In this document: positions 17,738 through 19,136 of the stretch, in pieces
How positions within the stretch are numbered: the first letter of the stretch is position 1
Layout of the letters: the number at the start of each line of letters is the position of its first letter
Assembly: GCF_023036475.1 (NCBI RefSeq)
Contig: NZ_JAJQKI010000007.1
Coordinates: 60,114-84,113 of the forward strand
Direction: 5' to 3'
Source of the DNA: Bacillus pinisoli
Lineage (GTDB): Bacteria; Bacillota; Bacilli; Bacillales; SA4
Length of the DNA stretch: 24,000 nucleotides
Program-made: the position numbers and the translations under genes
Notes under the pieces: model-generated
Seen by the model: only the letters and a program-made list of their open reading frames with translations
Databases searched by the model: none
Told to the model about the DNA's origin: nothing

Positions 17738-17766
17738 TTGAAATAAGAACATTTGTTCTATATAAT
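17738..17766 (+). promoter_or_regulatory. Near-consensus sigma-A promoter (TTGAAA-17 bp-TATAAT) with a Cheo/LexA-type box AGAACATTTGTTCT (17746-17759) in the spacer
   Basis: Read directly: TTGAAA (17738-17743), 17-bp spacer TAAGAACATTTGTTCTA, TATAAT (17761-17766). The box has the GAAC-N4-GTTC core of the Bacillus SOS operator consensus CGAACRNRYGTTCG. It points toward the RHH/LAGLIDADG genes about 170 nt downstream. Confidence 0.55.
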
Positions 17767-17933
17767 TGTTATATATAACCACTAAATCATCCACTTTAAC
17801 TTCATTTTGCTAAGAATTAGCTGGAATTTTCTCCTATATTTTTTCTAAGTCTTTGTTCTTTTCAAAACTTAAAGAGGGAAGTACTTAACACTCTTCTCGA
17901 AATCAAATTTTTCAATTAAAGGAGATTTTTTAT

Positions 17934-18269
17934 ATGTGGGAACTAATCAATGGAAAGTTAGTACAAAAGAAAGTTTCATCAAGAGTAAAATTTAGAACTA
18001 ATATCAGTGAATTAGTCTTATTAGAAGTAGATAGATTGTCCCTTAAATATGAAATCCCCAAAAATCACATTATTGAAATGGCTTTAAAAACCCTTATTCT
18101 AAATGATGTTATTATTACCAATACAATGGTTAAGCCCAAAGATAGAATTCAGTACAAGACCACTTATGATAAAGAATTACTAGAACAAGTAAGAGATTAT
18201 GCAAAAAAAAATAAAATACACGTAAATCAACTAATTGAATACAGCATGGGTTTAATTATACAAGAATAA
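17934..18269 (+). CDS. Hypothetical DNA-binding protein with two tandem ribbon-helix-helix-like repeats
   Basis: AAAGGAGA RBS 8 nt upstream. Residues 17-55 and 71-109 align without gaps at a fixed offset of 54 (RVKFRTNISELVLLEVDRLSLKYEIPKNHIIEMALKTLI vs RIQYKTTYDKELLEQVRDYAKKNKIHVNQLIEYSMGLII). Each repeat has a strand-helix-turn-helix pattern typical of Arc/MetJ/CopG RHH modules. Confidence 0.55.
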   Translation: MWELINGKLVQKKVSSRVKFRTNISELVLLEVDRLSLKYEIPKNHIIEMALKTLILNDVIITNTMVKPKDRIQYKTTYDKELLEQVRDYAKKNKIHVNQLIEYSMGLIIQE

Positions 18270-18302
18270 CTTTTTGTCTAAATGAAGAGGAGGTAAGGTG
18301 AG

Positions 18303-19136
18303 ATGACTAGGAATAAGGGTATTACCGATAGGGAAATTATTAGTATGTATAAGAATGGTATACCTTTCAAAGATCTGGAAAATATAGTTGGAATCTCATC
18401 AAGGTCTATTCGAAATATTTTATATAAACACAATATAGAAATGAATCGTATGCAATACTCGGGACAACCACGGAAACATAAAGTTAATACAGACTTTTTT
18501 AAGAAATGGTCACATGAGATGGCGTGGATTTTAGGACTCATTGTGACAGACGGTTGTATTAGCAAAAAACATCATAGCGTAACCATTACACAAAAAGACG
18601 AACGAATTATCCAATTAGTAGCAAAACTTATGGATGCAGATTACATTTTGGCTAGTGGTCTAAAGACACCAACTTTACAAATTAATTCAAAAGTTATTAA
18701 AGAAGACCTTGGTAAGTTGGGGATACATCCAAATAAATCATTATCAGTTGAGTTTCCGGAAGTTCCATCACATTATGTACCTTCATTTATAAGGGGAGTT
18801 ATTGATGGAGATGGATGGGTTGATCCAGAAGGTTATAAGTTAACAATTACTTCCGCAAGCATGTTATTTTCTAAAGGTTTATTGGATGTGTTTAGATCAT
18901 GGAATCTTAATGCATGTATAAGAGAATATAAAACTCAAATAGGTAATCCTGTTTATAGAATTCATGTAATTGGTAAGAATGATTTGATGCGCTTATCAAA
19001 TATACTATACGTTATTGAAATTGGTACTTTTATTAACTATAAAAGATTAAATATGTCACAACATTCTAAGGAACAGATGCATTATTTAGAAGATCTGATA
19101 AAATTCCAAAACTTTATAATAATAAATAAATTGTAG
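18303..19136 (+). CDS. Free-standing double-motif LAGLIDADG family protein with an N-terminal HTH (NUMOD1/resolvase-like) module
   Basis: GAGGAGGT RBS 8 nt upstream. Motif 1 is ILGLIVTDG (aa 76-84, nt 18528-18554) and motif 2 is IRGVIDGDG (aa 163-171, nt 18789-18815). Both retain the penultimate acidic residue. The N-terminal [36 protein letters not shown] looks like a three-helix HTH. Confidence 0.8.

Follow-up and report, generated by a model that had tools for sequence, protein, structure and literature searches.

Homing endonucleases of the LAGLIDADG type that act as a single chain, such as I-DmoI, the intein enzymes PI-SceI and TliVMA and the HTH-LAGLIDADG proteins of phages, combine a double fold with both catalytic acidic residues. 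Free-standing members of this group are patchily distributed and subject to pseudogene decay, and the phage genes have their own promoter and encode an extra DNA-binding domain. A DNA-binding domain joined to a LAGLIDADG scaffold is also found in the products of two regulated chromosomal genes: WhiA, which is without the catalytic acids of its LAGLIDADG motifs and carries a C-terminal HTH, and the eukaryotic HO protein of yeast, a domesticated intein-type enzyme that cuts the MAT locus.

The dif site, where chromosome dimers are resolved, is among the most conserved single-copy sites of bacterial chromosomes, and CTX-phi and TLC-phi integrate there, the former being LexA-regulated. Genes can also be hard-wired beside a terminus site, as in xerS-difSL, xerH-difH, tus-TerB and rtp-TerI, which encode a recombinase or a fork trap. 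XerS, for instance, forms a single module with its site (PMC1914069).

The locus described here lies in a 24-kb stretch of Bacillus pinisoli DNA (henceforth the window) and consists of an operon encoding a tandem ribbon-helix-helix (RHH) protein and an HTH-LAGLIDADG (LAG) protein. With free-standing homing endonucleases it shares the double fold and both catalytic acids, a promoter of its own, the extra DNA-binding domain, patchy presence and decayed copies. Unlike these, the gene is chromosomal, free of intron, intein or phage context, equipped with a conserved LexA box, placed between the LexA-box promoter and a chromosomal dif site, and paired or fused with a tandem-RHH gene. Like the four terminus systems, the module is fixed beside its site, but it encodes a nuclease-like and an RHH protein rather than a recombinase or a fork trap. 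In contrast to CTX-phi and TLC-phi, it is not flanked by a second dif-like site.

A candidate LexA box in the operon promoter

The operon is preceded on the forward strand by a predicted σA promoter, composed of a −35 hexamer TTGAAA (17738–17743), a 17-nt spacer and a −10 hexamer TATAAT (17761–17766). The initial annotation had called it the best σA match of the window, and a scan of the window bears this out with a score of 11/12, tied with one site (17346–17374) that lies antisense within an amidase gene. Within the spacer, and hence overlapping the core promoter between its −35 and −10 hexamers, is the candidate LexA (Cheo-type SOS) box AGAACATTTGTTCT (17746–17759). The Bacillus LexA operator has the consensus CGAAC(N4)GTTCG (PMC4551915). 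When the annotated match was re-checked it proved correct, the box sharing 11 of its 14 positions with CGAACATATGTTCG, and its GAAC-N4-GTTC core is perfect. As in the Bacillus LexA regulon, a palindrome of 14 bp whose GAAC/GTTC core is intact overlaps the core promoter, and variants with GTTTG occur in the family as they do at lexA.

The promoter is followed by a 5′ leader (17767–17933, forward strand) with a ribosome binding site AGGAG at 17920–17924. No remnant of either gene, the nuclease included, was found in this leader. Searches of the leader, the spacers and the block B element described below gave no Rfam match, either at the gathering threshold or at E ≤ 1, and no tRNA.

Two GAAC-N4-GTTC palindromes are present in the 24-kb window, against 0.3 expected. 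Within the window alone this excess is modest; the significance of the box comes from its conservation in other genomes. A survey for the box upstream of the module in other Bacillaceae, as the initial annotation had suggested, revealed a box, with one core mismatch or none, 40–100 nt upstream in 35 of the 40 related loci whose LAG gene is intact (two of the other five have no upstream sequence), and in all nine further loci checked. A comparable box is found in 8 of 33 LAG-less loci. Box positions peak, with 29 in one 100-nt bin versus a background of 2–3 per bin, and the box occupies the same core-promoter place across genera. The layout TTGAnn-N2-3-box-TATAAT is conserved: in most related loci TTGAnn lies 2–3 nt ahead of the box, and in most relatives the −10 hexamer directly abuts it. 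The family consensus reads A/G-GAAC-A/G-TTT-GTT-C/T-G/T, and the boxes CGAACCTATGTTTG and CGAACAAATGTTTC from the lexA-yneA intergenic region of a Bacillaceae genome, where GTTTG and GTTTC variants are found, resemble the module box.

The box is retained in the RHH-only loci L002, L044, L051, L059, L061 and L064, as well as in the nuclease-only loci L081, L082, L087 and L089. Since it persists where either gene is absent, the palindrome was rejected as an operator for either of the two proteins, and its binding factor is encoded elsewhere, with LexA as the obvious candidate. Taken together, these sequence comparisons strongly support the LexA/SOS control that had been proposed for the module. 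To our knowledge, no LAGLIDADG or RHH gene belongs to the B. subtilis LexA regulon, and a literature search for such a member found none.

The two encoded proteins

The first gene of the operon, ORF1 (17934–18269, forward strand), encodes a 111-aa protein that is predicted to be a single-chain tandem-RHH DNA-binding protein. The duplicated RHH fold assigned previously is supported. The AlphaFold model (pLDDT 84.6) consists of β-α-α, a linker and β-α-α (E17–25/H26–39/H43–57 and E71–79/H80–92/H97–110), with an internal sequence repeat (RVKFRTNIS... and RIQYKTTYD...). The PHROG Arc-like repressor profile matches the protein at E 1e-6. Among PDB folds, the closest matches are double-RHH proteins of the single-chain kind (TM ~0.6), headed by F-plasmid relaxosome chains, which we take to be TraY, a nuclease-accessory DNA bender. 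No Pfam RHH family scored above cut-off, and a PDB profile search yielded no sequence relatives. Like TraY, AvtR, DndE, VirC2 and engineered single-chain Arc, the protein would hold two β-α-α units in one chain as a pseudo-dimer; unlike these, to which it bears no sequence similarity, it has an extra N-terminal β-hairpin and is encoded in fixed association with dif. It belongs to a narrow family, which accounts for 96 of 1.84 billion cluster representatives and is limited to Bacillaceae and Planococcaceae. The window protein is a divergent member in which the usual C-terminal tail is missing. In relatives, dN/dS of the RHH gene is 0.06–0.23.

ORF2 (18303–19136, forward strand) follows after a gap of 33 nt, with a ribosome binding site GAGGAGG at 18287–18293. 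Its 277-aa product has an N-terminal HTH (residues ~9–42) and two LAGLIDADG motifs, ...ILGLIVTDG and ...RGVIDGDG, which end around the catalytic aspartates D83 (nt 18549–18551) and D170 (nt 18810–18812). Both residues are invariant across 80 homologues. Pfam LAGLIDADG_3 matches the protein in two stretches (E 3e-15), and the AlphaFold model (pLDDT 92.1) displays a pseudo-dimeric α-β-β-α-β-β-α fold behind an N-terminal three-helix bundle. Foldseek, which had been recommended for both proteins, matched ORF2 to homing endonucleases, among them TliVMA, PI-SceI, PI-PfuI and I-DmoI (E 2e-12 to 1e-5). The annotated LAGLIDADG protein with both catalytic acids and an extra HTH is thereby upheld, and its motifs and modelled fold place it among the single-chain, double-motif LAGLIDADG homing endonucleases. 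The nuclease gene has a dN/dS of 0.09–0.16 in relatives. The widespread product name 'rRNA methyltransferase' is supported by no domain match or model here.

Gene arrangement and the dif site

The module layout recurs in dozens of Bacillus relatives belonging to the Bacillaceae and Planococcaceae; members of the B. subtilis or B. cereus groups are absent among the matches listed. Five different gene arrangements were observed. The RHH and nuclease genes are adjacent, with gaps of 4–48 nt or an overlap, and in many genomes they are fused. Their divergence is correlated (Mantel r = 0.58). The initial annotation had drawn attention to an RHH gene directly ahead of a nuclease gene. The adjacency holds in the window and in many other loci, but the order is reversed in 38 of 40 related loci, where the nuclease comes first; the order of the window is rarer and shared by one other fetched locus, from Caldifermentibacillus hisashii. 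Nor is the pair obligatory. The survey of co-occurrence proposed at the outset found the two genes adjacent or fused in many genomes, yet the RHH gene stands alone in 33 of 80 loci (about 40%) and the nuclease gene in at least four, while the nuclease is decayed in approximately 11 loci (6–7 remnants and four frameshifted or truncated copies). No second RHH gene was found after the nuclease gene of the window.

Some of this variation occurs at one chromosomal place. In Sporosarcina, the arrangement fni-[promoter+LAG]-RHH in some genomes corresponds to fni-RHH at the same position in others, both followed by dif, and the insertion boundary is a terminator/ribosome binding site junction without dif-like sequence. 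Alleles of the form xerS-[LAG]-RHH and xerS-RHH also occur. Presence or absence at one locus together with decayed copies indicates that the nuclease cassette behaves as a mobile element, as read from these sequences. Lederbergia modules are 80–86% identical to Sporosarcina modules, which points to a transfer between families. Neighbouring genes show no synteny with the window across genera, the downstream side of the window being common only to B. suaedaesalsae. A phage origin was rejected: the phage relatives of the nuclease are HTH-LAGLIDADG genes with 25–32% identity (PHROG 4645 at E 1e-40), none were found for the RHH protein, and the extended dif motif did not turn up in any viral contig.

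What nearly all relatives share with the window is the position of the module beside dif, at the terminus of replication. About 50 nt past the operon end, the window carries the dif-like sequence GTTACCGATAATAGATATTATGTAAACT (19187–19214, reverse strand), which has six mismatches to the dif of B. subtilis (reference sequence in PMC3025954) and an identical XerD arm. Its 28-bp layout, with a 6-bp centre between the XerC and XerD arms, and its position at a shift in GC skew (+0.071 before and −0.077 after the site in the window) identify it as a putative chromosomal dif. The module had been described as sitting in long AT-rich spacers with no intron, intein or phage context; the latter stands, but the 3′ spacer holds dif at the skew switch. 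In relatives, the dif sequences have 3–8 mismatches to that of B. subtilis, and the dif core lies 21–59 nt past the last gene in 75 of 79 loci, whatever the gene order. A recognisable dif was not found near the nuclease loci L082 and L086. At 36 of 38 testable loci the skew changes from positive to negative at the site, and in complete genomes the loci lie mostly near 0.5 of the chromosome (0.47–0.54 in six, 0.67 and 0.74 in two).

Just past dif, a further element designated block B (ATCTCA-N22-TGAGAT, 19236–19269) folds weakly as a hairpin; its family consensus is GTCTCA-N6-7-AAGTATACTTAAGATAGTGAGAC, and it is retained in loci without the RHH gene. Together with AACGCCCC, it flanks dif in an invariant or highly conserved form. 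The RHH gene is found next to dif without the nuclease in at least 12 genera, and xerS adjoins the module in 12 loci.

Base differences at dif are suggestive of a link with the nuclease. The four bases flanking the dif core at the XerD arm are GAAC in 25 of 28 LAG-less loci versus 7 of 38 LAG-bearing loci (Fisher p = 9e-9, kinship ignored). This contrast is not seen in Cytobacillus. The dif class of the window, with a canonical XerD arm, has no nuclease-less comparators, and the polymorphism argument consequently rests on the other dif class.

Explanations for the locus

The explanation that we favor, with about even confidence, is that the nuclease gene forms a free-standing cassette for a homing endonuclease, timed by LexA, which has settled in a conserved RHH-dif locus and whose product probably cuts the flank of dif. 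In undamaged cells, LexA bound to the Cheo box in the spacer would block RNA polymerase, as suggested by the box sequence and its conservation. Upon DNA damage, activated RecA would promote self-cleavage of LexA and the operon would be transcribed. The endonuclease would then cut a long specific site, for which the XerD-arm flank of dif is proposed because of the fixed position of the module beside dif and the dif base changes that track nuclease presence. RecA-dependent repair from a cassette-bearing copy would spread the cassette together with its promoter and the dif variant linked to it, which would amount to homing timed to peak recombination capacity. The RHH protein would have been present at the dif locus before the nuclease. 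Since its gene closely adjoins the nuclease gene, or is fused to it, in many genomes, it might serve as the DNA-binding partner of the nuclease, but this role is guesswork.

Several observations count against this explanation. Bacterial homing requires that two alleles meet in the same cell; GAAC is kept in seven of the 38 LAG-bearing loci, contrary to a target in the dif flank; and purifying selection, like the conserved and regulated promoter, would be just as expected of a gene that benefits the host. If the cassette reading is nevertheless right, dif would be a landing pad and the probable target for a homing endonuclease, and the element would borrow the LexA switch of its host to fire only with recombination repair induced. 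This would open a new niche to selfish nucleases, would add a new class of member to the SOS regulon of Bacillaceae, and could explain the unusual dif variants of these genomes. It would also provide a natural LAGLIDADG enzyme whose candidate target, to judge by the sequences, occurs once in each of these chromosomes. Literature searches on LAGLIDADG genes under SOS regulation, and on homing endonucleases or RHH proteins located at dif, gave nothing relevant, in keeping with the earlier remark that no SOS-regulated RHH/LAGLIDADG pair had been described.

Among the alternatives, the strict adjacency to dif in 75 of 79 loci and in any gene order would also be expected if nuclease and RHH protein formed a host, or co-opted, SOS-induced device that acts on the cell's own dif or terminus. 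When damage leads to more chromosome dimers or stalled forks, such a device could make a programmed site-specific cut beside dif, through the LAGLIDADG enzyme, or remodel the Xer/dif complex; alternatively, the tandem-RHH protein could be an unrecognised dif- or terminus-binding factor that functions like the accessory factors of Xer or like Tus/RTP. An RHH gene beside its site would, by analogy, parallel tus/TerB, rtp/TerI and xerS/difSL. Purifying selection on both genes, the conserved LexA control, the invariant or highly conserved AACGCCCC and block B around dif, and the neighboring xerS in 12 loci agree with such a function, as do the RHH genes kept beside dif without a nuclease in at least 12 genera and the F-plasmid relaxosome chains as best folds of the RHH protein. 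The nuclease is dispensable, however, since about half of the loci have either no copy of it or a decayed or frameshifted one; most nuclease-less loci have an RHH gene without a LexA box; the family, with its 96 representatives, is narrow; and horizontal exchange is evident. We regard a host device as unlikely. Were it to exist, it would tie the DNA-damage response to dimer resolution or replication termination in Bacillaceae without RTP and reveal a damage-induced nuclease and DNA-binding system at the replication terminus.

That the LAGLIDADG protein is a domesticated scaffold like WhiA, which binds near dif or elsewhere without cutting, appears improbable. WhiA structures do occur among the fold matches, at ranks 9–10, one homologue has been named WhiA by JGI, and the protein has an added HTH. 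WhiA is characterized by degenerate motifs without catalytic acids and a C-terminal HTH, whereas here both catalytic aspartates are invariant in the 80 homologues, the HTH is N-terminal and, in fold as in sequence, the protein comes closest to active intein and homing endonucleases.

The layout had initially been likened to type II toxin-antitoxin and some defence modules, in which the LAGLIDADG protein would act as toxin or nuclease effector, with the RHH protein as its antitoxin or repressor, LexA-induced like dinJ-yafQ and yafNO. As in those pairs, an SOS box lies upstream of adjoining small RHH-type and nuclease-type genes. Orphan RHH genes could be leftover antitoxins, and fused toxin-antitoxin proteins are known elsewhere. 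Unlike dinJ-yafQ and yafNO, the pair is not obligatory, neither gene requiring the other (33 of 80 loci with RHH alone, at least four with nuclease alone, some 11 decayed nucleases), the order is variable and mostly nuclease first (38 of 40), and the nuclease is a site-specific LAGLIDADG enzyme fixed at dif, a position that this reading leaves unexplained. LAGLIDADG enzymes recognise long, rare sites and make poor general toxins. No toxin-antitoxin family in Pfam, NCBIfam or PADLOC matched, nor did a defence family; PADLOC returned a generic homing-endonuclease match and a weak PDC-S03 match (E 3e-4). A toxin-antitoxin or defence role, very improbable on these grounds, was rejected.

Insertion of the module at dif by Xer recombination, as an integrative mobile element exploiting Xer (IMEX) in the manner of CTX-phi and TLC-phi, is scarcely credible and was likewise rejected, despite the position immediately beside dif, the SOS regulation shared with CTX-phi and, in some loci, a second, inverted dif-like half site with a recombinase fragment past dif: in nearly all of the ~12-kb loci, the ~6 kb to either side of the gene contain a single dif-like site (≤8 mismatches to B. 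subtilis dif), no such site precedes the promoter, the extended site is on no viral contig, and the Sporosarcina insertion ends at a terminator/ribosome binding site junction.

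The module promoter and its LexA-type box

The module promoter combines a -35 element TTGAAA (17738-17743) and, after a 17-nt spacer, a -10 element TATAAT (17761-17766). Located inside the spacer is the Cheo-type/LexA box AGAACATTTGTTCT (17746-17759), which has a perfect GAAC-N4-GTTC core and shares 11 of 14 positions with the consensus CGAACATATGTTCG. For Bacillus LexA, the published consensus is CGAAC(N4)GTTCG (PMC4551915), and judged by its sequence the promoter qualifies as a Bacillus LexA operator. It scored 11/12 in a promoter scan, equalled at one antisense site within the upstream amidase gene. 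Two GAAC-N4-GTTC motifs occur in the window against 0.3 expected, an excess that, taken alone, is weak evidence for LexA control; the second, GAACTATGGTTC (5521-5532), lies right at the start of an ORF (5519-6196) and is probably due to chance.

Related loci were fetched with a profile of the small ribbon-helix-helix (RHH) protein encoded by ORF1, using one genome per species, and the state of the LAGLIDADG nuclease gene (ORF2) was scored by tblastn with the window nuclease. Among the resulting 80 loci, 40 gave a full-length match, 7 a remnant or contig-edge fragment and 33 none. Allowing at most one core mismatch, a GAAC-N4-GTTC box 40-100 nt upstream of the module start was found in 35 of the 40 loci with the nuclease (of the five without a box, two are without upstream sequence) and in just 8 of the 33 nuclease-less loci. 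A further nine loci, retrieved by way of the nuclease, all carry the box. When positions are counted from the RHH start, a single bin (-900 to -800) contains 29 boxes, compared to a background of 2-3 per bin. The box-aligned promoters read TTGAnn-N2-3-[A/G]GAAC[A/G]TTTGTT[C/T][G/T]-TATAAT, the operator occupying the promoter spacer as it does in the window. As the box is retained in loci with only the RHH gene and also in loci with only the nuclease gene, neither protein can have it as its operator, and the factor that reads it must be encoded elsewhere. Between lexA and yneA, one Bacillaceae genome contains the boxes CGAACCTATGTTTG, CGAACAAATGTTTC and AGAATGTTTGTTCG, which are of the same variant types as the module boxes. 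Together, box conservation, persistence of the box without either gene and the lexA-yneA variants lend good comparative support to the proposed SOS control of the module.

In three Sporosarcina loci (L023, L049 and L060), two extra perfect GAAC-N4-GTTC boxes precede the box of the module promoter, at about -321 and -146 relative to the start of the nuclease gene and with only small ORFs close by; these may control another SOS-regulated transcript.

The two encoded proteins

The window comes from Bacillus pinisoli, and each of the two proteins has a 100% identical database entry. ORF1 (17934-18269; 111 aa), downstream of the promoter, matches no Pfam or NCBIfam family above the cut-off. It contains an internal repeat (RVKFRTNIS...NYLLE and RIQYKTTYD...NDVIEYS), matches the PHROG Arc-like repressor (E 1e-6) and was modelled by AlphaFold (pLDDT 84.6) as a beta-hairpin followed by two beta-alpha-alpha units. 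Its top PDB folds are single-chain double-RHH proteins (AvtR, DndE, single-chain Arc and F-plasmid relaxosome chains, the last presumably TraY), at TM ~0.6 and with weak E-values, while a PDB sequence search returned no relative. ORF1 is a single-chain tandem RHH protein of a small, sharply bounded family (96 cluster representatives among 1.84 billion). Proteins of this type (111-125 aa; window 17934-18269 and homologue entries P0121-P0240) are named 'rRNA methyltransferase' in NCBI and UniRef; neither domain match nor structural evidence backs this name, which looks like a propagated misannotation.

ORF2 (18303-19136; 277 aa), beginning 33 nt after ORF1, belongs to the LAGLIDADG family by motif and fold. 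It matches LAGLIDADG_3 (E 3e-15), its NCBIfam matches are intein-borne endonuclease segments, and residues 7-237 match PHROG 4645 'endonuclease' (E 1e-40). The model (pLDDT 92.1) shows a double LAGLIDADG core with an N-terminal three-helix bundle, Foldseek returns TliVMA, PI-SceI and PI-PfuI, then WhiA and I-DmoI, and neither D83 nor D170 varies among 80 homologues. Given the repeat, family, model and fold evidence, the initial annotation was right in calling an RHH and an HTH-LAGLIDADG protein. When tested for WhiA identity, the module failed.

Position of the module at dif

An all-against-all comparison of the DNA 3' of the module exposed a block that is 75-88% conserved across genera and, when read out, is dif, the chromosome dimer-resolution site of the Xer recombinases. 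It reads ACTTCCTATAATATATATTATGTTCGGG in most loci, B. subtilis dif being ACTTCCTAGAATATATATTATGTAAACT (PMC3025954). The window has the dif-like site GTTACCGATAATAGATATTATGTAAACT on the minus strand (19187-19214), 50 nt past the nuclease stop codon and with a XerD arm identical to that of B. subtilis. The initial annotation, which described the surroundings as long AT-rich spacers devoid of intron, intein or phage context, had overlooked this site at the replication terminus.

In 75 of 79 loci, 21-59 nt (median 39) separate the dif core from the end of the last module gene. However the genes are ordered internally, the module has the LexA promoter at its 5' end and dif at its 3' end, and operon transcription runs toward dif, codirectional with replication. 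Sites of the dif type coincide with the skew shift point (PMC3025954). GC skew turns from positive ahead of the site to negative behind it in 36 of the 38 loci that could be scored (means +0.091 and -0.117), as in the window (+0.071 and -0.077), whose cumulative skew has its peak at 18501-19000. Most of the loci in complete genomes map near the chromosome midpoint, six at 0.47-0.54 (for example 1.85/3.71 Mb, 3.08/6.23 Mb, 2.66/5.17 Mb and 1.99/4.13 Mb) and two at 0.67 and 0.74. This link to dif is unexpected and open to direct test.

On the far side of dif, ~15-30 nt beyond it, a further conserved element, block B, occurs across L001-L089; it has the form GTCTCA-N6-7-AAGTATACTTAAGATAGTGAGAC (window copy 19236-19269) and does not depend on the presence of the RHH gene. 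It folds only into a weak hairpin, had no match in an Rfam search and may be a protein-binding site. An inverted second dif-like half site (ACTTCCTATAATAA...) occurs ~95 nt beyond the dif core in L003, L011, L014, L017, L019, L030, L050 and L066, and in several of these a XerC/XerD-like recombinase ORF, or a fragment of one, comes next (L030 6684-7322, 213 aa, XerC/XerD matches at E 1e-45). The module failed the test for an IMEX.

No recognisable dif was found near L082 and L086, both of which carry a solo nuclease gene with a LexA box. L082 (Bacillus sp. FJAT-52991, 4001-5200) adjoins an hsdM gene and an integrase, and its nuclease gene is followed by a tRNA-like 3' fragment (GGTTCGACTCCC...) without an ARAGORN call; it may be an ectopic copy. 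L077 (Geomicrobium sediminis) and L079 (Bacillaceae bacterium JMAK1) are nearly identical (99%); both have the RHH gene and, with 2 mismatches in the core, a dif-like site, but block B is absent. The L079 record is titled plasmid pGIAK2, and one of the two is annotated as plasmid-borne.

The nuclease gene as a candidate mobile cassette

Of the 40 full-length loci, 38 have the nuclease gene first and the RHH gene immediately after it, spaced by 4-48 nt or overlapping. This is opposite to the order of the window, RHH then nuclease, which recurs in Caldifermentibacillus hisashii (L088). In many 'LAGLIDADG' database entries 360-400 aa long, the nuclease and the RHH protein are fused in frame; L062 and L075 have an RHH gene followed by such a fusion, and L081, L082, L087 and L089 have the nuclease without the RHH gene. 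The window nuclease is closest to this solo and fusion group (57-63% identity). Among the 40 full-length nuclease genes, 4 are frameshifted or truncated. Purifying selection acts on the nuclease and the RHH gene alike (dN/dS ~0.06-0.23), and their divergences correlate (Mantel r = 0.58; observed value reached in 0 of 2000 permutations).

In Sporosarcina, the RHH gene is preceded by fni (type 2 IPP isomerase). Some species have fni, a terminator, an RBS, the RHH gene and dif, whereas others have fni, the terminator, the LexA promoter, the nuclease gene, the RHH gene and dif, so that the insertion or deletion comprises exactly the promoter and the nuclease gene. Likewise, in 11 loci with xerS directly upstream of the module (L011, L014, L027, L029, L030, L042, L055, L059, L063, L066 and L085), arranged xerS-[LexA promoter-nuclease]-RHH-dif, the cassette may or may not stand between the xerS and RHH genes. 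A twelfth locus, L043, has xerS downstream and on the opposite strand. The module-adjacent xerS matches NCBIfam equivalog NF003462 (405 bits) and is 77-95% identical between loci. XerS is genetically linked to its own site (PMC1914069); the common dif class, with its non-canonical outer XerD arm (invariant GGGGCGTT), might be a XerS-type site. Presence and absence, remnants and frameshifts match the way in which homing endonuclease genes invade, decay and are lost.

The common dif class reads AACGCCCC-NNNN-ATAATATATATTAT-AGGAAGT, in which the outer AACGCCCC is invariant, while the NNNN bases beside the dif core, in the middle of the XerD arm, differ by nuclease state. Among nuclease-less loci (at least 11 genera) they are GAAC in 25 and other in 3, compared to GAAC in 7 and other in 31 (nine other variants) among nuclease-bearing loci (Fisher p = 9e-9, with loci counted as independent and kinship ignored). 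Taken genus by genus, Sporosarcina, Metabacillus and Niallia each show the contrast and Cytobacillus does not, and the base on the opposite side of the core is also more variable in nuclease-bearing loci. Such substitutions in a recombinase-binding arm that is otherwise conserved, found almost only with the nuclease, are what immunity of a putative target site, or its repeated cutting and repair, would produce.

We propose that LexA would repress the module promoter until DNA damage lifts repression, the endonuclease thus being made when RecA-dependent repair is most active. It would cut the dif flank of chromosomes lacking the protective substitutions, and repair would copy the cassette, making it a free-standing homing endonuclease gene with dif, conserved and present once, as its landing pad. 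The RHH protein may be an older dif-linked DNA-binding protein, later coupled or fused with the nuclease. As a whole, we give this LexA-timed homing cassette about an even chance of being correct. In full-text literature searches, nothing came up on LAGLIDADG genes under SOS regulation, on homing endonucleases sited at dif or on a link between an RHH protein and dif. The main rival, a co-opted host system that would work, in the SOS response, on the dif or terminus of its own cell, seems to us rather unlikely. The toxin-antitoxin- or defence-like pair suggested by the initial annotation is not supported, and the module failed when tested as a toxin-antitoxin pair: variable gene order, solo genes and fusions are at odds with an obligate toxin-antitoxin pair, and PADLOC returned only a generic homing-endonuclease match.

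The genes flanking the module show no conservation between genera. Lederbergia modules are nearest to those of Sporosarcina, which points to horizontal exchange. L004 (JAGGRA010000028.1), titled 'Pseudomonas sp. ISL-84', has Bacillaceae-like sequence syntenic with Cytobacillus L020, and the assembly is probably mislabelled or contaminated. Between the window and B. suaedaesalsae, the far side of dif is syntenic and the near side is not, the synteny being marked by a BsuPI-like gene (window 19320-20453) and a Lys-rich 68-aa ORF (window 20684-20890; L081 6617-6825) with 78% nucleotide identity.
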